A stretch of 64,000 nucleotides of DNA from Dehalococcoidia bacterium (GCA_965219565.1 OZ244780.1:174287-238286), one strand, 5' to 3'. Numbered from the stretch's first letter, positions 5,558 through 26,381 are shown. The notes: generated from the letters alone by a model not told the origin. Translations and numbers: made by a program.

Positions 5558-5599
5558 GCGTTTCTCCTTGGGTAGCAGAGTCCCGGTGGGCGCGGCGGT

Positions 5600-6934
5600 C
5601 TACGCCACGCCCGTGATGTTGTACTGCAAAGCTGTGTGGGTTGCGGTGGACCTGCTTCCCGTTCTCTCGGCGAAGGCAATTCGCAGGCTCACCACCATGA
5701 TGTTCTGTCGCTTCTGGATGTCTCGATCAGTTTCGATGGCAAGCTCCCGGCGGAAACCGACCCTCCATTGGGACCGGTTCACGATGAGCAGCCGTCCGGT
5801 GTTTGTCACGTTTCCTGCGTCGGTCACCTGTCCGTCGGTGTCCGCCAGCTTCATCTGCTCCGACACGATGACAGGGATCCCTTCAACGGCACCAAGCTGC
5901 CCCCTTAGCACGGTGGCGTTGGGCCCCAGCTTGTCCAGGGTGCGGAAGGTGTCCACGCTCAAGGCCCGGATGTACGTGTTCACGTCCATGAGGTAGGCCA
6001 GTTCGGACGGCCGCACGCCGTACTTGCCGAGCTTGCCCCGCACTTCGTTGAACATGCCGTCGGACACGGCGGCGCTATGGTCGTTGGCCTGGGCGGTGTT
6101 GTCCACCAGCGGCAGATGAAGCAGCCCGTCGAATCCCAGCAGCCAGTGTCCCTTGCCCACGTCAGACTTTGATATGGTGGCTTCGTCAGCGTTGATGTTG
6201 TTCACCGTCGTCGCATCGCCGTTGAGGACCACGTCGTCGATTACCTCCGCGGCGTTGCGCACCAGCCCGCTGCGGACCTCCTGGGCCATGGCAATCACCG
6301 CGTCCTCGTCCAACGTCAGGGACCAGGGCACCTGGCCCACCAGCTCGTAGGAAGTCAGCGTCTGCTTGGCGGTGTTCAACGCCGTCGCGGTCACGGCCAG
6401 GTTCTCGGTGCCGGGATACCAGTTCACGTCGCCCAGCTGAAGCGGTATCTCGAAGGGGTCCGAGGGCATATCCACCCTGGAGAACAGCGGAGCCACCATG
6501 GTCTCCAGGTTCACGTCCATCCAGAGGGTCGAGGCTTCCTGGGTGGGGACCAGTTCGTCGCCGGAGCCGGCTGTGGTGGAGTCCATGGCCGCTTTCAGGT
6601 TCGACTGCCACTCCTCCAGCATCCGAGGGTTCAGGCCCAGGGGTTGGCGTATCTGGGCGTTGAGCAGACTCCGCATGTAGGCCAGGTCCAGCAAGTCCAG
6701 GCCCTGGTACTTCCCGTAGGGCACCCTGGGCCGGTCCTGCCCGCCGTACTTGCCCAGGAGCGCTTGCTTCTCTCCGTTCTTCCACATCTCCCGGATGCGG
6801 GCAATCTGGGCCGAAACTCGGCTCACCTCTTCCTTGAGCGGAGGAAGCTCACTGTCGATGCGGGCGTTGTAGAACTCCCGCACACCGGCCACTTCCTTCT
6901 TGATTAGGTCCAAGTCTTGAGCGCTGATGGTCAT
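5600..6934 (-). CDS. Major capsid protein, HK97 fold, with N-terminal coiled-coil (delta/scaffold-like) region
   Basis: 444-aa ORF. Coiled-coil N-terminus (KEEVSRVSAQIARIREMWKNGEK), then a typical HK97 core (DELVPTQEASTLWMDVNLETMVAPLFSRVDMPSDPFEIP). Sits directly after the prohead protease. Confidence 0.85.
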   Translation of the reverse strand: MTISAQDLDLIKKEVAGVREFYNARIDSELPPLKEEVSRVSAQIARIREMWKNGEKQALLGKYGGQDRPRVPYGKYQGLDLLDLAYMRSLLNAQIRQPLGLNPRMLEEWQSNLKAAMDSTTAGSGDELVPTQEASTLWMDVNLETMVAPLFSRVDMPSDPFEIPLQLGDVNWYPGTENLAVTATALNTAKQTLTSYELVGQVPWSLTLDEDAVIAMAQEVRSGLVRNAAEVIDDVVLNGDATTVNNINADEATISKSDVGKGHWLLGFDGLLHLPLVDNTAQANDHSAAVSDGMFNEVRGKLGKYGVRPSELAYLMDVNTYIRALSVDTFRTLDKLGPNATVLRGQLGAVEGIPVIVSEQMKLADTDGQVTDAGNVTNTGRLLIVNRSQWRVGFRRELAIETDRDIQKRQNIMVVSLRIAFAERTGSRSTATHTALQYNITGVA

Positions 6935-8028: not shown

Positions 8029-9450
8029 ATGACCCGCTTAGTCGTGATTCCTCTGGCATCCATACTGGCCGTGGTCCTTTTGGCCCTGGCCGGGCTGGCC
8101 GTGGCTACAGCCCAAGCCTCCGACCCGGATGTCAGCCCGTTCTACGACTCAAACGGCAACGGGGTGATTGACAGGGACGAGGTTATAACAGCCGTCGCAG
8201 ACTATTTCGCGGGTGTCATCACTAGAGACCAGGTCCTCGTCATCGTCCAGTACTACTTCAGCGGTGAGGCAGTCCCAGATATAGAGGACATCCTGCCGGA
8301 TGAGCCGCCCACCCGGTCCCTGAGTGAGGTCATCGAGGATGTGCGCCCGGCGGTGGTGTACGTCCGAAATCTCAAGGTGGGCAGCGGGAGCGGCGTCATA
8401 TTCAAGACCGAAGGCGAGACGGGGTACGTGATGACCAACTCCCACGTCGTGGACGACATGGAGGAGGGCCTATGGGTCAGGACCGATGACGAAGAGTGGT
8501 ACACTGCCACTTTGCTGCGAGCTGACCCCATCCGCGACCTGGCCGTGGTCACTATTTGCTGCGGTGAGTTCACGGCTTTGGACTTCGCTCAACCAGAGGA
8601 CGTCGAGGTCGGGGATGACGTGGTGGTAATGGGCTACCCGGACCCATTGTCGTATGACACAGCTACGGTGACTAAAGGCATCGTGTCAGCGTTACGATAT
8701 CGCTGGAGCCGAGCTAGCATAATTCTGCAAACTGATGCTGCCAGCAATCCTGGCAACAGCGGCGGCCCCATACTGTCCACTGACGGCCTTATAGCAGGCA
8801 TCGTTCACTCGCGCTCCGAGGAGGGACGTGACGACCGTCCCCGTTTTGGGCTGAGTTATGGAGCGGCTGTGGCGACCATACAGGAGCACATGACTTCGCT
8901 GATTACGCCCGGAGGTGAGTTTATCTTCGAGGATATCTCAGGCGAGCTTCGCCACCAACCCGACGATGACAATATCGTGCAACGCGTATTCAATATGAAC
9001 TATATCGATGGCCGAGCCGATGTAGAGCTAGAGACAACCTTCACGAACCCGTATTCTGCCAGCACACAGCTTTGGTCCTACGGATTAACGGTCCGCTATG
9101 ACCCCGACAGACAAGATGATGAAGACCTGCCCGATCTCAGGATTCTTATTGACAGTGAACGCAGATGGCGGGTACAGATGGCCGTGACTGGGCCTGATGA
9201 GGTTATCGCTAGTGGACAAGCCACCAACATTATGGTCGACGAAGGGGAACGGAACCATATCAAGGTAAGGGCCGTTGGCGATACAGCTCAGTTGTACATA
9301 AACGGCCAGCAGGTTGGGGGCAACATAGACATTAGCTCCGTGCCCCATCCTGGCGACATCGGAGTGTTCACCGGCTATTGGACCGGCAGTGAACGTGACG
9401 GGGCCGTAACTGAGTTTGAGAACTTGCGCGGCAAGCTGCTTGACCAGTGA
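8029..9450 (+). CDS. Secreted trypsin-fold (S1) serine protease with Ca-binding loop and C-terminal beta-rich domain
   Basis: Signal peptide ending ATAQA|SD; DSNGNGVIDRDE loop; catalytic triad contexts TNSHVV, RDLAVV, GNSGGP. An unassigned C-terminal domain of about 190 aa follows. Confidence 0.8.
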   Translation: MTRLVVIPLASILAVVLLALAGLAVATAQASDPDVSPFYDSNGNGVIDRDEVITAVADYFAGVITRDQVLVIVQYYFSGEAVPDIEDILPDEPPTRSLSEVIEDVRPAVVYVRNLKVGSGSGVIFKTEGETGYVMTNSHVVDDMEEGLWVRTDDEEWYTATLLRADPIRDLAVVTICCGEFTALDFAQPEDVEVGDDVVVMGYPDPLSYDTATVTKGIVSALRYRWSRASIILQTDAASNPGNSGGPILSTDGLIAGIVHSRSEEGRDDRPRFGLSYGAAVATIQEHMTSLITPGGEFIFEDISGELRHQPDDDNIVQRVFNMNYIDGRADVELETTFTNPYSASTQLWSYGLTVRYDPDRQDDEDLPDLRILIDSERRWRVQMAVTGPDEVIASGQATNIMVDEGERNHIKVRAVGDTAQLYINGQQVGGNIDISSVPHPGDIGVFTGYWTGSERDGAVTEFENLRGKLLDQ

Positions 9451-9516
9451 AGGGACCACATGCCGCTCTGTGTGCCATCACCACGCCCGCCGCTAGTTGT
9501 TTAATGCCCTTAGCGA

Positions 9517-9987
9517 CTAATAGCACCCCGTCCATTCCACGTCCGACGGCCAGGGTATGAACTCGATCGTGCGGCCGCTTACGGATTTGAATACGGCCAG
9601 GTCATCTCTAACCAGCTCAATCGTGCCCCGACTGTCATCGGAAGTCCAACCCGGCGGCGGATTGTAGTTGCCCAGCATTGGATCGGCCATCCAGACCCGT
9701 CCATCGAAGTGAGCGTCGCGGACACCGCAGTGGACGTATAAAGTGTATGGATACGTGTCTCCGATTTCCGCGCCCGGTCCTTGAGGCGGTCTCTCTAGGA
9801 GTTCTGGGTCCACTGTGGGCATCGGCGCCGGTGTCGCCGTTGGAGATGTTGGTTGAGCGGTCGGGATGGAGGAGCCGTCGCATCCTGCTGTGGCCACTAT
9901 CAAGAAAACCAACAGTCCGCCGACAATGCTAAGCCTCGAAACTCCATGCCGCCTTCTCCCCTTTGATTCTTTCATGGCAGCCCTCAT
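9517..9987 (-). CDS. Lipoprotein, unknown function
   Basis: 156-aa ORF. GGAGGG lies 9 nt upstream of the ATG. Lipobox LIVATAGC is followed by a Pro/Thr-rich linker. Confidence 0.6.
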   Translation of the reverse strand: MRAAMKESKGRRRHGVSRLSIVGGLLVFLIVATAGCDGSSIPTAQPTSPTATPAPMPTVDPELLERPPQGPGAEIGDTYPYTLYVHCGVRDAHFDGRVWMADPMLGNYNPPPGWTSDDSRGTIELVRDDLAVFKSVSGRTIEFIPWPSDVEWTGCY

Positions 9988-10127
9988 CGAATAACCCTCC
10001 AGCTGAGGCGCCCCCCTTGTGGGTCAGGGACACCACCATGAATAAGACGTAGCGGCTCAGGAAAAGGTTCCCGGTGGAGGAGAACTTTTCACCCGCGGGC
10101 GGTTCCTTCTCCACATTCTCATTGTAG

Positions 10128-11375
10128 CTAAACGGCCCTCGGCCCGTCGCCCCAGGGCACGTCGGGCATGTTTCTGCTCCGGCGCACCTCGTTTATCGTG
10201 AGGACTCCCCGGTCCAGCAGCAGCGCTTCGCGGTTTGCCCGGTCGTTCTCGTCCTCCTTTAGCGCCTCGATGTCGGCCAGGTCGAACTCCACCCTTACGC
10301 CAGAGTGGCCCAGCATGGGAAGCAGCTTCTCGTTGATATGCTCCTCCAGGAACTTCATCTCCGGAATCATGGTGTTGCGCCAGAAGATGCGTTCCGCTGT
10401 GTTGATGTTCGTGAAGGTGGCGTTCTGGTAGTCGGACAGAAGTGGCATAGGGACTCCAAAGGTGCGGCTCACGTCCTCCAGGCTCCAGCGCAGGCCCTGG
10501 ACGAACTCCATCTCCCTGTGGGTGAATCCCAGCGTCTTAATGTCCTTAATAAAGCTGGCTATGGCGGGCCGGTGGGCGTTTCCTGGGCCTCTGAACCGCC
10601 GCTCCCAACGCTGGTAGAAGTCCTCCACCTCGTCGTCGGTCATCCCCTCCTCGGTGGTGAAGATGACATCGGGTTGAGCCGAGTTCCGGAAGAAGTTCCG
10701 GTTGAAGCGCATGGCGTCCGCCCCCATGTCGGCGGATAAACGCAGGGGCGCCATTGGCGACAGCCCGGCGTACTCGTCCATGGGGTTGAAGTAGCGGAAC
10801 CAAATCACCTCGTCTCTCGTATACGGCACAGGCCCTGTCGTTCCCATGTAGACGTATCCTTTGACGTACCGATGTCTGTCTGGCAGCACGCGCATCCGGT
10901 CGGGACGCAGAGGCCAGATTTCCCACCGGCCCTCGTCGTCCGGATCCAGCGCCCAGAAGGCCGAACCCCACAGGCTCAGGTAGGTCTCTGTAGCCCTCCA
11001 TAGGTCGCCCCTGGTGTGCCAGGGGTTCACCCGGTCTATAAGCTGCTGCACCGGGTGGTCAGGACTTACCGGAATCCACCCCGAGGAGCCGTCTCTGGCC
11101 AGCGCGGTAACCCCGGGCCGAGCCAGGGCTTCGCTCCGCACCCGAATTGCCGAGTATACGGGCACGGAGGAAGCGTAGTAGCTCCCGTACACCGTTTTGG
11201 CCCAGTCCTGTCCGACGCCCGAGGTCTCGCTATAGCGGTCCACGTCCACCCGGGAGGTGCGGTTGGCTTTGGCAACGTGCGAGGGACCTAGTCCGTTATC
11301 GCTCTTACCCTGCCTCCGGCCAAGCGCTCCCAGCGCGTGCTGCAACAGATTGGCGGACTTGATTGTGGTTGTCAT
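10128..11375 (-). CDS. Phage portal protein, HK97 family
   Basis: 415-aa ORF downstream of TerL. VPVYSAIRVRSEALARP...LIDRVNPWHTRGDLWRATETYLSLWGSAFWAL is typical of HK97-type portals. Confidence 0.85.
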   Translation of the reverse strand: MTTTIKSANLLQHALGALGRRQGKSDNGLGPSHVAKANRTSRVDVDRYSETSGVGQDWAKTVYGSYYASSVPVYSAIRVRSEALARPGVTALARDGSSGWIPVSPDHPVQQLIDRVNPWHTRGDLWRATETYLSLWGSAFWALDPDDEGRWEIWPLRPDRMRVLPDRHRYVKGYVYMGTTGPVPYTRDEVIWFRYFNPMDEYAGLSPMAPLRLSADMGADAMRFNRNFFRNSAQPDVIFTTEEGMTDDEVEDFYQRWERRFRGPGNAHRPAIASFIKDIKTLGFTHREMEFVQGLRWSLEDVSRTFGVPMPLLSDYQNATFTNINTAERIFWRNTMIPEMKFLEEHINEKLLPMLGHSGVRVEFDLADIEALKEDENDRANREALLLDRGVLTINEVRRSRNMPDVPWGDGPRAV

Positions 11376-20459: not shown

Positions 20460-20579
20460 CCCCCGGCAGTGGCCTATTTTCCCACTCCGTCGCCGGAGCA
20501 GTATCGTGAGCGCTGGAGCGTTTCACTTCCGTGTTCGGGATGGGAACGGGTGGGTCCGCACCGCTCAAACCGCCAAGGG
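20460..20579 (-). rRNA. rrf: 5S ribosomal RNA (orphan, not linked to 23S/16S)
   Basis: The minus strand is colinear with bacterial 5S: CCCACCCGUUCCCAUCCCGAACACGGAAGUGAAACGCUCCAGCGC...GGGAAAAUAGGCCACUGCCGGG. Helix I closes between the 5' CUUGGCGG and the 3' CUGCCGGG. Confidence 0.9.
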
Positions 20580-20684: not shown

Positions 20685-21074
20685 CTAGTACATGATGAGG
20701 TGAGTTGGGACCAATCGTTGCTCCACGGGGTCCACTGCCAATGCCAGACCCTCTAGGGTATAGGCCCCCAGCAGAGCTGGGGCGTCGTCTTCTCCAAAGA
20801 CCACTAGAGTCGTCACACTCTCGCCGTCGACGGTTGCCCGGGCCTCCCCATAGTCCATCTCAATCCGCCGCCCGTCGGCCCGCAGGATCCTGCGCTTGCC
20901 CATCGGTGCAACTCCCAGTTCACGCAGCAGGCTCTTTGGCAACGTGGTGTAGGCCGCGCCGGTGTCGACCGTCGCTTCTATTTCCTGGGTCTGCAGGCCG
21001 TCCATGTTGGAAATCCGCAGCGGCCACTTGAATGTTCCCACAGGTAGCGACCTCTCTTTACTGGCCATCGTCAC
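20685..21074 (-). CDS. Retropepsin-like (clan AA) aspartic protease
   Basis: 129-aa ORF with catalytic VDTGAAYT and size and shape typical of stand-alone bacterial/archaeal retropepsin-like proteins. Start is GTG at 21074 or ATG at 21068. Confidence 0.7.
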   Translation of the reverse strand: MTMASKERSLPVGTFKWPLRISNMDGLQTQEIEATVDTGAAYTTLPKSLLRELGVAPMGKRRILRADGRRIEMDYGEARATVDGESVTTLVVFGEDDAPALLGAYTLEGLALAVDPVEQRLVPTHLIMY

Positions 21075-21210
21075 ATGGAGCCGGGAGAAATCGGAGGCGG
21101 AATACTAGGACGGCCTTCTCTGCGATAATTGGGAAGTCGTAGTGCGTGAGCTGGTGTGTGAGCCGGAATCATTCTGACATGGATGGATTCGGCTTCACTG
21201 GAGAAAGATA

Positions 21211-22257
21211 TCAAGACTCTTCACCGTGGGGTTCAGGCTGGCCTTCCGTCAAAGCTTCCGCTAGTTGGGTCATTCTGTCCATAAACCCCGGCTCTGTCTT
21301 AGGTGGGTTGAGCTGCTCCCCTGATTCCGCATCCAAGACACCATCAAGTTTAGGTAGGTGGTCCCTGTAGGCGTTAGCCGCGTCAAGCTGCGTCTGAGTT
21401 ATGCCTTCTGCCGGATAGTCGCCTTCACCGAGAGAGAATCGGGTGCCTGAAAGGTTTGCCTCAAACAACCATGCATCCTTCAAATTCGCGCCTTGAAGAC
21501 GGGCGTTGGACAAGTCTGCAGCCATTAGGATCGCGCCCGACAGATCTGCTTTTATTAGATTCGACGCCGATAAGTTCAAACGAGCCAAATGTGCATCCCG
21601 AAGGTCCGACCCGCTAAGGTTCAACTCGAAAGCCTCGTTGTCTTCAAAACCAACGTCCTCCTCACTTCGGGATCCTATCGCCGCCATGGCGGCCCGGACT
21701 TCCTCGCGTAGCCGGGGTGAATTTGCTGAGCTGCGGACAAACAAGCTCAACCGCTTGATGACCTGGACGTGATACTCTGATGGATGTTCCCTTGCTAGTC
21801 GTTCTAGCATATCTATGCCGTCCACGCGGACGGCGGGGTCATCGCTTCCAAGTCTTGAACTGCCCTGTTCATAGCGTTCGTTGAGAAAGCTCCGCAGGGT
21901 GGTTTTGGATTCACGCTCTGCCGTCTTGGCCTGGAGAAACGCTGCGGATGCTTGACGCAGGGTGGCATCAGCTTGTCGTTCGGCAACTAAACTCCGCCAC
22001 ATGGCGAGCATTACGGCTACGATACCGCCGACTACAAGGCCGACATTACGAATCGTGGTGCTATTCGATTCAACAGTCTCGGTGCGGATTGTCTTGATAC
22101 CTGTTTCGAGCTCCTCTGTACGAATCTCAATTATTGAATTCACTTGGCCCCAAAACAAGAGACATACAACTCCGAGAACGATAGTCACGATTATCGTCGC
22201 GGGCACCCAGAAGAGACCAGAGCTGAAGAATTCCCGGCCAGGAAGAATCCGACGCAT
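21211..22257 (-). CDS. Membrane-anchored pentapeptide-repeat protein
   Basis: The ATG at 22257 lies 14 nt after the upstream stop; product is 348 aa. Two TM helices flank a coiled segment. A helical LGSDDPAVRVDGIDMLERLAREHP region is followed by A(D/N)LxX repeats (NLSGSDLRDAHLARLNLSASNLIKADLSGAILMAADLSNARLQGANLKDAWLFEANLSG). Hand-counted GC is about 42-58%. Confidence 0.8.
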   Translation of the reverse strand: MRRILPGREFFSSGLFWVPATIIVTIVLGVVCLLFWGQVNSIIEIRTEELETGIKTIRTETVESNSTTIRNVGLVVGGIVAVMLAMWRSLVAERQADATLRQASAAFLQAKTAERESKTTLRSFLNERYEQGSSRLGSDDPAVRVDGIDMLERLAREHPSEYHVQVIKRLSLFVRSSANSPRLREEVRAAMAAIGSRSEEDVGFEDNEAFELNLSGSDLRDAHLARLNLSASNLIKADLSGAILMAADLSNARLQGANLKDAWLFEANLSGTRFSLGEGDYPAEGITQTQLDAANAYRDHLPKLDGVLDAESGEQLNPPKTEPGFMDRMTQLAEALTEGQPEPHGEES

Positions 22258-22271
22258 CCCTATCAACCAGT

Positions 22272-25200
22272 TCAAGTCTGACTCACCAGCGTCAGAATCG
22301 TGGCAATCCGCCGCGCCGTGTCTGTGAAGTGCTGCACTTCTTCCGGCAGTAACGCTCTGCCCAGCACGTTGCGCTCCCGATACGACAGCCACTTTTTGAG
22401 GACTTGGTAGCCGCCCAGCTTGTAATTCCAGACTGCGGCGGGGACGTTGCGCCAGTAGGCCCGGTCATTCAAGTAGACGTCGAACGTCGTGGTGCCCAGA
22501 ATCTTCACGGATTCACCCATTGCGGCGGTTTCGTCTGTGGTGTAGGGACGTTCGACGACGCGACCCTGGCCAGGCATGACGGCTTCACCCTGCCCGAAGT
22601 GGCCCCAGCCCGCCGTCATCGCGAAGTCGTCCCCGGCCATGTTGCCGCCATCGGCGGTGGACGGCACAGCGATAGCGGCTATCTCCGGGCGCAGCGTTCC
22701 CTCGGTGACGCCGGGAACGGGTTTGTCGGAGTCAAGCAGCGCGGCCAGCTCACGGCCGCGCGCCGCGGATGCGGCAAGCTCCTCCTCCGCCCCGTCTGTG
22801 TCACCATCGGGCCAGCCAGGGAGGGAGATACGCGGCCACTCCATTCGCAACGCGCTGGCGTTGGCCTCCCGGTAGGCGGGGTCGTGCAGCACGGCCAGGA
22901 CGTGGTGGAACAGGTCCTCCACCCCTGCACCCAGGCGGTTAAGATAGCTTTGGGCAGCTTCCGACAAGTTGGGGCGGTGTCGCTTGTCGTTGTCGGAGAG
23001 ACTCAGTTCGTTGCCCCGAAGCAGTGTAGGAACGCAATAGACTCCGCTGTTCATCTGATTGAGGTCACCCATGTCTGAGATTACTAACGGCGGCGACAAT
23101 TCCGGTCGGGCTTTTCGTTGAAAGACCAACCACAAGTTCCCAGCGAACACGTCCGGCTTGTACTCGGCCCGCTTTTCGTCGAGCAGCTTCGTCTCCGCCT
23201 CCCAATAGAGCCACCGCGTATCAAATGGCCGGTAGGCATAGCGGATAAATCCTGACTCTGTGGGGCCGCCGCGTTTGAGCAGTGTATCCCGCACCGCGCG
23301 AGCTTGGTAACGCGCCGTGGAGTCCATGAAGGACCGATAGCGCCGGGCAAACTCTTCGTGGCTCAGGTGAGAGTTGAAATAGCCCATAACCCGAGTCTTC
23401 AACCGGCCGAGGTCAACGTCTACCAGAAACGAGTCCCGGCTGGTCTTGACTCCCGGAAACGATGTTGGAAACAAGTCGGGCAACGTTGGCCAGTCTTGCC
23501 AACCATCGCCGACCGCCATTCGCCCGAATGGCAGGCCTAGGGGCAGATTCGGCTGAATGCTGTCGTAGAGCGTGTCCGGCTCCCTCTCTGCCGTCTCCGT
23601 CAACTCCTCACGCTTGGACTGGCCCCAGAGGTGGCGGAACCCCACCGTTTCCGCCGGCCCGTGGTCTGCCTTGCGGACCAGAGTGGTGATTGCTGTCCCT
23701 ACCTGGATACCCACCGGGTCCTCCGGCGTCGAGAAGATGCTGGGGTCGGGTGCGCCGTCAGGCGTCGTCTTGCCGGTCTTGTACTTGTCGCCGTTAAGGG
23801 AGTCGATCCGAATGGCGTCGAACGCCTCCAGGTATCGCTCTCGCATTCCAGTGAAGGAAAGGCCATCGAGCCAGGAGTAGTTGGATATGAAGCAGACTAC
23901 GCCCCGGCCTGTCTTTTCCGCGATGCGACGTTCCGCCATCCGGAAGAACCGCACGTACAGGTCGTTCAGCCCCTGACCCTCAGGCCGCCGCACCTGCTTG
24001 GTCGTCCGATAGGCTTCCAACAGCTTCTGTTCCTCATCCACGGCCATGCCCGCGAAGCCGTTGTAGGGTGGATTGCCCAGAATGACCAGGACTGGGGTGT
24101 CCTGCTTCACCCGCTCGGCGCGGTCACGCTCCTCTTCAAGCTCCGGGAACGGCAGAGGCTTCTGCACCGTCGGCTCCCAGCCGGTGAGCGCGTTGGTGAG
24201 GAATATTCCTGCCCGTTCGGCGCCGTCTTCAGACAGCGGCGCATCAAGGTCTTGCATGGTAAGCCCGACCTGTAGGTGGGCCACCACGAACGGAGCGGGC
24301 ATGATTTCGAATCCAAAAACCCGTTTAGTGGCTGCCTGTTTCACCTTGGCTCCGGCGAGCGCTCCAGAGCCCTGCCCCTCCAGGTTAGCTGCGATGCGTC
24401 GCAGGACTTCCGCCAGGTAGGCGCCTGTGCCGCAGCAGGGGTCTAGGACATAGACGTTCTCAGCCGCCAGCCCATCAGCGATTCCGAGATCGTCTTTCAG
24501 GGCCTTGTCTACCCGGGCGACCATGTAGCGCACGACCTCAGGAGGCGTGTACCAGACGCCGAGCTGCTTGCGTAACTCAGGGTCGAACGCTTCCAGGAAG
24601 GGCTCGTAAAAGTACGGGACGGCCTCGCCCTCGTTGAACTTGTCAAAGAAGGCGGCGCGGTCCACACGGTCCAGCGCCGACGCTGTCCAGTCCAACACCT
24701 CGACCAACCCCAACGGCTTCAATTGGCTGGGGGACGATACCTGTTGGAACAACGCCTCTAGTACGGGGACGCGGAGATGCCAAGTAGCGTCGTGCCAGTT
24801 GAAGGAGCTGGTTGGCGGCGGTGTCTGGCGGGCCCAGAGGACCCATGCCGAGAAGACGCCGTAGAAGAGGGTTTGCACCAGCGTCGACCGGAAGAAGGCC
24901 GCACCGCGGTCGCCCTCGAACCGCACACCCAGGGCCTCTTCCAACGCGGACCTTACAGTGTTGAGGGATGGCGCATCACCGGCCGCCTCGACCCGCGCCA
25001 GTCCGTCTCGTGCGTAGGAGGCCAGCAGCCACGCCAGGTCCTTTGGCTCGGCAATGGATGCTTGTTGGGTGAGGGCACGGCACAGGTATTCTCCCAGGCC
25101 GGGGCCCACGGCCTTCGCAAAGGCCCGGGGTTTCTCCAGCCGGGACTCGAACGCTTCCTCGGACTCCGCGAGCCGAAAGGTCTCCAGCTTGACGGGCTGG

Positions 25201-25613
25201 CCGGTCGCATCCTCGCCGAGAAGAACGAAGTCGCGGGTGTTGGTGACCAGCACAAGCCGGTATTTGTTCCAATACTTGCTGACCTGACTGCTCTCGGCGG
25301 TTAACCAAGCGTCGTCACTCGCTGGTTTGACCTCAACGACGCCGCGTTCCGGAAGCTGTCCCTCTCGCGGTTGGCCCTTTTGCACCTGTTTGGCGCCATA
25401 CAGGCCAAAGTCGGGGTGGCCCGCGCCCTGCTGCGCCAGTTGGCTGACGCAGAACACTTTAGGTTTGAGTGTGCCGCCCACGGCATCCAGCAAGTTGGTC
25501 AGTGGGGGGTAGTAGGAAAGTTCATTGGTGCCCCCTCCCGACGCTCGTATTATGCGCAGATAGTTAAGGTAGTCTTCAACGGCTTTCGTCAGTTGAGTGG
25601 TCGTTCTTGGCAT
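22272..25613 (-). CDS. Single-polypeptide Type IIG / Type ISP-like restriction-modification enzyme (PD-(D/E)xK nuclease + gamma-class N6-adenine methyltransferase + C-terminal specificity domain), no helicase
   Basis: 1113 aa. HPDF...x24...VVEVKP nuclease-like motif, SAM motif VLDPCCGTGAYL, catalytic GNPPYNG, and a C-terminal YRPFDTRWLYW signature seen in Type ISP/IIG specificity domains. Confidence 0.75.
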   Translation of the reverse strand: MPRTTTQLTKAVEDYLNYLRIIRASGGGTNELSYYPPLTNLLDAVGGTLKPKVFCVSQLAQQGAGHPDFGLYGAKQVQKGQPREGQLPERGVVEVKPASDDAWLTAESSQVSKYWNKYRLVLVTNTRDFVLLGEDATGQPVKLETFRLAESEEAFESRLEKPRAFAKAVGPGLGEYLCRALTQQASIAEPKDLAWLLASYARDGLARVEAAGDAPSLNTVRSALEEALGVRFEGDRGAAFFRSTLVQTLFYGVFSAWVLWARQTPPPTSSFNWHDATWHLRVPVLEALFQQVSSPSQLKPLGLVEVLDWTASALDRVDRAAFFDKFNEGEAVPYFYEPFLEAFDPELRKQLGVWYTPPEVVRYMVARVDKALKDDLGIADGLAAENVYVLDPCCGTGAYLAEVLRRIAANLEGQGSGALAGAKVKQAATKRVFGFEIMPAPFVVAHLQVGLTMQDLDAPLSEDGAERAGIFLTNALTGWEPTVQKPLPFPELEEERDRAERVKQDTPVLVILGNPPYNGFAGMAVDEEQKLLEAYRTTKQVRRPEGQGLNDLYVRFFRMAERRIAEKTGRGVVCFISNYSWLDGLSFTGMRERYLEAFDAIRIDSLNGDKYKTGKTTPDGAPDPSIFSTPEDPVGIQVGTAITTLVRKADHGPAETVGFRHLWGQSKREELTETAEREPDTLYDSIQPNLPLGLPFGRMAVGDGWQDWPTLPDLFPTSFPGVKTSRDSFLVDVDLGRLKTRVMGYFNSHLSHEEFARRYRSFMDSTARYQARAVRDTLLKRGGPTESGFIRYAYRPFDTRWLYWEAETKLLDEKRAEYKPDVFAGNLWLVFQRKARPELSPPLVISDMGDLNQMNSGVYCVPTLLRGNELSLSDNDKRHRPNLSEAAQSYLNRLGAGVEDLFHHVLAVLHDPAYREANASALRMEWPRISLPGWPDGDTDGAEEELAASAARGRELAALLDSDKPVPGVTEGTLRPEIAAIAVPSTADGGNMAGDDFAMTAGWGHFGQGEAVMPGQGRVVERPYTTDETAAMGESVKILGTTTFDVYLNDRAYWRNVPAAVWNYKLGGYQVLKKWLSYRERNVLGRALLPEEVQHFTDTARRIATILTLVSQT

Positions 25614-25655: not shown

Positions 25656-26381
25656 CTAATCCGCTTGGATGGATTCCGGGGCAGGGGCGTGCTCGTGGGA
25701 CTCGCAGGCCACCCAGCGGGCCTCTCCGTCCTCGAAGTGTTCCTTCTTCCAGATGGGGACCCGCTCTTTCAGCAGGTCGACGGCCTCGTGGCAGGCGTGG
25801 AACGCTTCTTTGCGGTGTGGTGAAGCCGTCGCCACGACCAGGCTGATTTGGCCGATGTCCACCGTGCCTATACGGTGGGATATGGCCATGTCCTCTATGC
25901 CGTACTTGGCCAGGACTTCGAGCCGGACCTTTTCCAGCTCACTGACAGCCATCTCTTCGTAGGCCTCGTACTCCAGCCCAAGCACCTGCCTGCCCTCGGC
26001 GTGGTTTCTGGTGACGCCCAGGAAGGTGACCACCCCTCCGTTGGAGTCCTTCCGCACCAGAGCGGTGATTTGTTCGGGGTCCAGCGGTTCGCGAGTCACG
26101 GTTATCATGGGCTGACCTCCGCTGACGGGGGGAATAAGGGCCACTTCATCTCCCGAATGCAACACCGTGCTCCCCTCGACGTACTCGGCGTTCACCGCCG
26201 CGACGATGTCTACGCCGGGCGGGGCTAGCTGGGGGAAGATGTCGCGTACGTGGGCAATCAGATCGCCCACTGTGGAGTTTTCGGGAAGCTCCAGGGGCAT
26301 GGAACTCCGGCCCGCCCTCTCCCTGTAGAGGGCAAAGAATCGGACAGCCACTTTGACGCCTTGCCGGGTTCCCTGGGCCAT
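25656..26381 (-). CDS. moaE: Fused molybdopterin synthase MoaD-MoaE (MoaX-like)
   Basis: The N-terminal ~90 aa is a ThiS/MoaD fold ending in PPVSGG. It is followed directly by the MoaE core (MITVTREPLD...VVTFLGVTRNH...HRKEAFHACHEAVDLLKERVPIWKKE). Confidence 0.85.
   Translation of the reverse strand: MAQGTRQGVKVAVRFFALYRERAGRSSMPLELPENSTVGDLIAHVRDIFPQLAPPGVDIVAAVNAEYVEGSTVLHSGDEVALIPPVSGGQPMITVTREPLDPEQITALVRKDSNGGVVTFLGVTRNHAEGRQVLGLEYEAYEEMAVSELEKVRLEVLAKYGIEDMAISHRIGTVDIGQISLVVATASPHRKEAFHACHEAVDLLKERVPIWKKEHFEDGEARWVACESHEHAPAPESIQAD

Follow-up and report, generated by a model that had tools for sequence, protein, structure and literature searches.

Single-chain Type IIG restriction enzymes are thought to work alone. 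For one such protein, BBQ67 of Borreliella burgdorferi, experiments have demonstrated a contribution to the restriction of foreign DNA as well as responsibility for N6-methyladenine (m6A) methylation at CGRKA; the authors of that work thought it unlikely that accessory proteins are required. Pentapeptide repeats, in turn, have been mentioned for conflict systems, for a phage protein that counteracts defence and for a Hailong-like channel protein; a published note ascribes to the last of these, which is encoded in a P4 hotspot, both pentapeptide repeats and an IRK channel domain. The current study concerns a 64 kb stretch of DNA from a Dehalococcoidia bacterium (hereafter the window), in which a minus-strand unit at 20685-25613 encodes a Type IIG enzyme, a membrane pentapeptide-repeat protein (PRP) and a retropepsin-like protease. 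Our comparison of related loci indicates that this is a two-gene unit of enzyme and PRP, not a three-gene one. The kind of enzyme is known, and what is new is the coupled membrane PRP, an undescribed accessory. In our literature searches we encountered no system in which a membrane PRP accompanies a Type IIG enzyme, and no PADLOC model matched the PRP, which agrees with an earlier reading of the window made from the DNA letters only (the sequence-only reading) that knew of no described defence system with this composition.

The association of the two genes was evaluated in 14 informative loci, each with a PRP relative that is 37% or more identical and with sufficient DNA around it. The enzyme family or a remnant of it was found directly upstream of the PRP gene in 12 of them, always in the same order and orientation and amid unrelated flanks: the enzyme is full-length in the window, L001, L004, L005, L048 and L060, degraded in L002/L003, L019, L021, L031 and L049, and represented by its C-terminus at a contig edge in L026. 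The PRP relatives of L020 and L050 have no enzyme of this family. Seven loci share a start/stop overlap of the form NTGA (TTGA in the window, L001 and L002; GTGA in L019; ATGA in L004, L005 and L031), while enzyme and PRP overlap by 4 nt in L060 and are separated by an 8-nt gap in L048. Such 4-nt overlaps suggest translational coupling. In the window, TTG 22275 is the most likely start of the PRP gene, rather than the ATG located 14 nt past the enzyme stop, because the database copy of the window PRP (P0001) has 354 residues and the homologues P0003 and P0006 begin with MNWL at the same TTG overlapping the upstream TGA, with no internal ATG available. The enzyme and PRP genes therefore overlap by 4 nt. 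The tight coupling proposed in the sequence-only reading is thus borne out by the adjacencies and by the NTGA overlaps, even though its 14-nt spacing is replaced by the TTGA overlap and its PRP of 348 residues most likely has six more. The enzymes that bear a PRP do not group together as a clade, and at least two PRP subtypes can be told apart, which are only 44-47% identical to each other. The PRP is an optional accessory, which in the subclade of at least 37% identity occurs almost exclusively behind this enzyme family.

The degraded enzymes are informative about the role of the PRP. Three of them have undergone independent in-frame internal deletions that kept the enzyme start as well as the native stop overlapping the PRP start: in L002 (9675-10004), the N-terminal 33 and C-terminal 76 residues are left in an open reading frame (ORF) of 109 residues; in L019 (5684-6004), 43 and 63 residues are joined at another junction in an ORF of 106 residues; and in L031 (539-2602), residues 1-148 are fused to residues 575-1107 in an ORF of 687 residues. 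Only the last 55 enzyme residues are left in L049, and in L021 the enzyme is split into three ORFs. The PRP was intact at every degraded-enzyme locus, with pairwise dN/dS values of 0.19-0.33 that include two remnant-associated copies. These patterns suggest that the PRP needs translation of the ORF upstream in order to be expressed, and that it is useful without the catalytic core of the enzyme. The persistence of the PRP beside degraded enzymes, combined with the presence of its remoter relatives in other defence islands, argues against a simple brake and for autonomy. The reading that we tentatively favour, with a confidence that stays somewhat short of even, is that the PRP may form a second layer of defence, autonomous and linked to the membrane, whose translation is coupled to that of the enzyme.

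Several observations weigh against this reading. When the sampling was centred on the enzyme, a PRP was present in 2 of the 13 complete loci, so that the PRP is dispensable for restriction; an ordinary, mostly solitary enzyme family, which the sequence-only reading had set against a multi-gene system, is therefore in part what was found. No PRP was detected beside the plasmid homologues of the enzyme in Rhizobium, Sphingomonas and Azospirillum, which are solitary or lie in defence islands. Neither PADLOC 2.0, run on the window PRP and five relatives, nor the defence models of Pfam and NCBIfam returned a match for the PRP, and the defence context of its remote relatives amounts to guilt by association. 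Besides, the PRP-centred sample was drawn from called proteins, which favours intact PRP genes, the in-frame state of the three deletions could be due to chance (about 1 in 27), and the breaks of the L021 enzyme might be assembly frameshifts. Moreover, the C-terminal 55-90 residues of the enzyme are kept at all five degraded loci and could be needed by the PRP, which would point to physical interaction instead of autonomy. The retention of this segment next to the PRP also fits an alternative in which the PRP mimics DNA to regulate the enzyme or tethers it to the membrane; with the beta-helix in the DNA-binding cleft of the enzyme, the PRP would damp self-restriction or hold the enzyme where phage DNA enters. 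We consider this alternative unlikely. Although tight translational coupling would provide a fixed stoichiometry and other PRP relatives adjoin restriction-modification (RM) genes (L020, L029), a brake or tether would be purposeless where the PRP is intact and the nuclease and methyltransferase core is gone (L002, L019, L031, L049). Most enzymes of the family do without a PRP, and BBQ67 restricts and methylates, its authors having thought accessory proteins unlikely to be needed.

The architecture of the PRP bears on the same question. The protein matched Pfam Pentapeptide (6.8e-13) and has 863 homologues. Its AF2 model (pLDDT 90) comprises two transmembrane (TM) helices, a helix of 72 residues, a four-helix module, pentapeptide turns and a C-terminal helix, which agrees with the two TM helices and the helical module of the sequence-only reading, whose count of about 12 repeats becomes about 13 regular turns plus a few irregular ones. 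In the membrane module, the loop of the beta-hairpin (residues 43-60) is predicted to face outward, and a conserved S-x-S-T-T-I-R-N-x-G motif occupies invariant or near-invariant columns of alignments A1 and A2. The 72-residue helix (65-136) consists of TM2, with small residues at positions 73, 78, 81 and 85, and of the stalk, and the HEAT-like module that follows has the signature LLNERY...VR.GGI.AL.RLA.EHP..YH. The N-terminal module matched no Pfam family and gave a weak match in the PDB to a designed HEAT-like alphaRep (E = 0.005), the rest being non-significant. The top 50 PDB entries retrieved by Foldseek with the PRP model each consist of or contain a pentapeptide beta-helix (for example MfpA, Qnr and Np275), and among them there was nothing for the membrane and stalk part and no channel. 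The beta-helix has a net charge of -9 and a pI of 4.4 (family median charge, -8). In this acidity it resembles MfpA and Qnr, as a regulator of the enzyme would be expected to, but the scores against the NCBIfam MfpA and Qnr models are far under their cut-offs, and a repeat region that ranges from 69 to 272 residues across the family is a poor fit to a DNA mimic of fixed length.

The membrane module also raises the alternative of a latent toxic effector guarded by the enzyme, such that inhibition of the enzyme by a phage would release the PRP to cause depolarisation and abortive infection. The PrrC-EcoprrI pair and channel effectors such as Hailong HalA are models for this arrangement. The two TM helices with GxxxG-like small residues and the long stalk suggest a membrane oligomer, the C-terminal enzyme fragment left at the degraded loci could serve to restrain the PRP, and pentapeptide repeats are joined to a channel domain in the Hailong-like defence protein described in a published note. 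We nevertheless regard a guarded effector as quite improbable: Pfam identified no IRK or other channel domain in the PRP, none of the top 50 Foldseek matches in the PDB is a channel, no nucleotidyltransferase partner was found, and a toxin dependent on a guard would not tolerate the absence of any enzyme seen for the PRP relatives of L020 and L050.

Under the favoured reading of a coupled, autonomous second layer, we infer the mechanism of the PRP from gene linkage, overlaps, architecture, the acidic beta-helix and conservation. By analogy with characterized relatives, the enzyme would methylate adenine in its own sites and cut unmodified incoming DNA, and ribosomes finishing the enzyme ORF would go on to translate the PRP through the TTGA junction. 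The PRP would sit in the membrane with both ends in the cytoplasm, an N-in/C-in topology deduced from the charge distribution, and it probably oligomerises, given the long stalk and the small residues of TM2. There it would work beside the enzyme and independently of enzyme catalysis. The acidic beta-helix may bind a DNA-handling protein, possibly encoded by a phage, with the effect being exerted at the membrane.

The N-terminal module of the PRP (residues 1-210, comprising membrane part, stalk and HEAT-like module) defines a large family, with 1629 representative clusters at E <= 1e-3 and 827 at E <= 1e-10. The remoter members (25-44% identity) are not accompanied by this enzyme and often adjoin defence genes, including an XcyI-type RM pair (L020), an Eco57I-like enzyme of 1363 residues (L029), MrfA-type and UvrD helicases (L030), an AAA_15/21 ATPase (L036) and AbiEii/AbiEi with a Panacea-domain antitoxin (L027). 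PRP-enzyme pairs also occur in such surroundings: that of L021 (7228-8277) lies in a defence island adjoining a CAP12/Pycsar-type TIR effector that binds cyclic nucleotide monophosphates, and that of L060 (7192-9418) lies beside an AAA_15/21-DUF3696 ATPase and a GmrSD_N gene. The most distant matches (L038, L040) adjoin serS and secDF, and may represent a different family. Scans of viral contigs with both the enzyme and the PRP found no relatives and hence no sign of phage origin, and a plasmid search with the PRP module gave one weak match, in Anabaena, and nothing else. It is possible, if rather doubtful, that the proteins combining TM helices, stalk, HEAT-like module and beta-helix (about 800-1600 clusters at 50% identity) form an undescribed membrane anti-phage family, repeatedly recruited behind restriction enzymes as a coupled second layer. 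Such a family might use the DNA-like beta-helix as a sensor of phage DNA-binding or anti-restriction proteins and set off a response at the membrane. As a separate observation, the PRP gene is closely followed by a PIN-domain gene of opposite orientation in two loci that are otherwise unlike, L002 (11183-11515) and L048 (6101-6496).

The position behind the enzyme is not always filled by a PRP gene. In L009, where a sister genome has its orthologous locus (ClpC 99%, ArgJ 96%, MoaE 94% and enzyme 86% identical), DNA similarity with the window ends near the 3' end of the enzyme gene and resumes just upstream of the protease, and the PRP slot holds a different gene of 284 residues (9324-10178) with an ATGA overlap with the enzyme. 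The encoded protein has a weak match to DUF5677 (E = 0.0012, below the cut-off), a domain that one preprint lists among those enriched near defence genes; L001 likewise has a DUF5677-like gene (5558-6466), which lies divergently ahead of the enzyme gene. What fills the slot varies, and different coupled genes can take it. The GC content of the PRP gene (about 0.54-0.55 vs. about 0.60-0.64 in its surroundings) is consistent with a swapped cassette, although it is not decisive for recent transfer. A variable slot could also mean that the PRP has no functional link to the enzyme and is an independent gene, for defence or membrane housekeeping, sharing a variable hotspot, which would also accord with the many contexts of the remote PRP relatives, serS and secDF (L038, L040) among them, and with the 10 of 13 enzyme loci that have nothing coupled. 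This seems decidedly unlikely to us, since the adjacency recurs in 12 of 14 loci with the same order and orientation and unrelated flanks, down to 37% PRP identity, and the conserved 4-nt overlaps are hard to obtain by chance.

The enzyme itself can be assigned with more detail. Pfam matched Type_ISP_C (PF18135, 1.4e-38), N6_Mtase (3.8e-9), Eco57I (6e-6) and MmeI_Mtase, and PADLOC matched REase_MTase_IIG (PDLC03610, 1.8e-90, residues 17-521) as well as a second Type IIG model (2.5e-72); the PADLOC check proposed in the sequence-only reading thus classified the enzyme and left the PRP unmatched. These matches identify the protein as a single-chain Type IIG enzyme in which a putative PD-(D/E)xK nuclease at the N-terminus is followed by a gamma-class N6-adenine methyltransferase and by a Type_ISP_C domain for target recognition. 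Neither Pfam nor PADLOC matched a helicase or ATPase family, and no separate S or R gene was seen near the enzyme. In these respects the sequence-only reading proved accurate, its catalytic motifs being invariant among homologues. The putative nuclease is called from its motifs; the AF2 model of the full enzyme (39 homologues, 78-86% identity) reached an unusable pLDDT of 42, and a PDB profile search with the N-terminal 330 residues gave no match at E <= 1. Sequence matches in the PDB were restricted to the methyltransferase and recognition domains, and comprised DrdV (7lo5; 3.3e-33, residues 327-935), LlaBIII and LlaGI. Among 14 homologues, sequence variation peaks at about residues 660-900, a stretch reaching into the N-terminal half of the recognition domain, which would be expected if specificity has diversified.

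More than 8000 homologues of the enzyme were found, and identities to it lie at 78-86% in all of the best 120 clusters; the full sequence of 1113 residues (P0498) does not appear in the homologue list, in which a 356-residue fragment (P0499) stands for its 90% cluster. A scan of species-representative genomes returned 15 loci, mostly in metagenome-assembled genomes of Dehalococcoidia, some of which carry two copies, with relatives at 54-57% identity in cyanobacteria, Planctomycetota and Fimbriiglobus and at 42% in an archaeon. For example, L013 and L016, both on OZ253584.1, are paralogues in one Dehalococcoidia genome that are 80% identical. The plasmid homologues mentioned above have 45-55% identity and are named "type ISP restriction/modification enzyme" by PGAP, and a gene on plasmid lp56 of Borreliella burgdorferi is 22.8% identical over 94% of the enzyme query. 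Judging from its plasmid location and size, the latter is most likely BBQ67. Altogether, the enzyme is an unexceptional representative of a Type IIG family that is very large, is without helicase domains and has mostly solitary members. It was also observed that pairwise identities within the family are star-like (67-86%), and that conservation outside the recognition domain is unusually high for a restriction enzyme.

The third gene of the unit encodes a protein with a VDTGA motif that scored just over the cut-offs of the Pfam gag-asp_proteas and Asp_protease_2 models (PF13975, 28.3 vs. 28.2; PF13650, 25.7 vs. 24.3) and under that of TIGR03698 (47.2 vs. 57.35). The D-T-G-A motif and a hidden Markov model score above cut-off place it, by its sequence, among the clan AA retropepsin-like proteases. 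Its annotated and conserved form has 118 residues starting from GTG 21041, which leaves 169 nt between it and the PRP gene; these values supersede the 129 residues and the 136 nt first given. The sequence-only reading had regarded the protease as a possible third component, one that could process or activate the enzyme or the PRP. Such a three-gene system is largely refuted and in our view highly improbable. The protease does follow the enzyme in the window and in L009, and a frameshifted copy does so in the different context of L016, but L009 is simply orthologous, the L016 copy is broken, and the protease is missing from five loci with a full-length enzyme and a PRP (L001, L004, L005, L048, L060). 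All three genes occur together in no other locus examined, so that the co-occurrence check proposed with the three-gene idea succeeded for the enzyme and PRP and failed for the set of three. More than 3700 protease homologues at 80-99% identity were found, the gene being very abundant and multi-copy in Dehalococcoidia; DNA similarity between copies is limited to the coding sequence, and two other protease variants, examined at 16 places with three distinct flanking contexts, had neither enzyme nor PRP nearby by tblastn. The protease is an unrelated conserved chromosomal neighbour at the edge of a variable region, and not a component. Its copies (L041-L047, L051-L059) border regions whose upstream side varies, as a comparison of L051 with L053 illustrates; that side contains transposases, toxin-antitoxin-like genes and 0.5-1.2 kb of apparently non-coding DNA before the gene. 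The protease gene may mark a recombination or integration hotspot.

The positions of the features discussed are collected in the table. The three co-oriented minus-strand ORFs with the domains described for them in the sequence-only reading were all recovered where that reading had placed them, as judged from ORFs, Pfam and PADLOC. Of the flanks it described, the 5S rRNA gene was confirmed, and moaD and moaE turned out to be a single fused ORF instead of separate genes; further neighbours of the unit in the window are ArgJ and ClpC. An Rfam scan of the 64 kb window gave no match besides the 5S, and no other rRNA gene is present in the window. A sigma-70-like promoter match (TTGAAA, a 17-nt spacer and CATAAT) was observed at 20621-20593, just upstream of the 5S gene, and an isolated 5S gene adjoins ClpC in the sister genome (L009) as well. 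Within the unit, a scan for promoters and terminators gave counts at the level of shuffled sequences.

Table. Position, strand and description of the features of the window
Feature	Position	Strand	Description
Type IIG enzyme	22272..25613	-	1113 aa, single ORF
Putative nuclease catalytic motif	25326..25415	-	P67-D68...E94-V-K96; invariant in homologue alignments A3 and A5; inside the PDLC03610 span
Methyltransferase core	24063..24443	-	Motif I D391-PCCGTG-397 to motif IV N514-PPY-517; invariant columns in A5
Type_ISP_C target-recognition domain	22353..23477	-	Residues 713-1087; Pfam PF18135
TTGA junction	22272..22275	-	PRP start TTG overlaps enzyme stop TGA; putative translational-coupling site
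PRP gene	21211..22275	-	Membrane pentapeptide-repeat protein; 354 aa from TTG 22275, 348 aa from ATG 22257; open frame extends 21211-22392
PRP membrane module	21997..22218	-	TM1 14-34, beta-hairpin 43-60, TM2 65-87 (AF2; alignments A1 and A2)
PRP cytoplasmic stalk and HEAT-like module	21637..21996	-	Predicted stalk to residue 136, four-helix module 141-207 (AF2, family alignment)
PRP acidic pentapeptide beta-helix	21313..21636	-	Residues 208-315; five-residue strand periodicity (AF2), Pfam, PDB
Retropepsin-like protease	ORF 20685-21074	-	118 aa; annotated start GTG 21041
5S rRNA	20461-20577	-	Rfam 83.5 bits
Fused ThiS/MoaD-MoaE	25656-26381	-	One ORF of 241 aa

If the favoured reading is true, a recurrent coupled membrane partner would add an accessory layer to a well-known class of defence enzymes, and the locus would provide a first functional handle on a large uncharacterised family of membrane pentapeptide-repeat proteins in defence islands. 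If the PRP is inert, the locus would be an ordinary restriction enzyme with a passenger gene. The variable slot, for its part, shows defence modules swapping cassettes in uncultured Dehalococcoidia.

Among described systems with pentapeptide repeats, Hailong is comparable in that HalA and the Hailong-like protein are, like the PRP, membrane proteins with pentapeptide repeats encoded in a defence operon. Membership in Hailong was rejected, as there was no IRK match in Pfam, no nucleotidyltransferase gene in the window or related loci, and no match by sequence or among the top 50 folds. The PRP shares with MfpA, Qnr and AlbG a right-handed quadrilateral beta-helix with an acidic surface, whereas these proteins are soluble, have about 180-220 residues and act on gyrase, and the PRP adds two TM helices, the 72-residue helix and the HEAT-like module. 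Membership in the MfpA/Qnr group was likewise discarded (NCBIfam MfpA, 25.9 bits vs. 360; QnrC, 16.7 vs. 500). On the enzyme side, BREX was rejected, the PglX model matching at just 4.2e-5 and the neighbours being MoaD-MoaE, ArgJ, 5S rRNA and ClpC, with no PglZ, BrxC or BrxL. The Type ISP enzymes LlaGI and LlaBIII share the methyltransferase and Type_ISP_C domains with the window enzyme but have an SF2 helicase-like ATPase motor between nuclease and methyltransferase that the window enzyme is without. Type ISP proper was consequently rejected, no SF2 translocase domain being found by Pfam or PADLOC and the PDB matches to LlaBIII and LlaGI skipping it. The best match with a solved structure is DrdV (Type IIL, 7lo5), which like the MmeI-family enzymes has the same domain order; we know of no accessory membrane protein for DrdV or MmeI-family enzymes. 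The closest counterpart is the helicase-less family called "type ISP" by PGAP, a subset of Type IIG/IIC, which has the same single-chain layout of nuclease, m6A methyltransferase and Type_ISP_C domain. From its relatives in Rhizobium, Sphingomonas and Azospirillum and on lp56, which lack a coupled downstream PRP gene, the enzyme of the window is set apart by the membrane protein encoded directly behind it.

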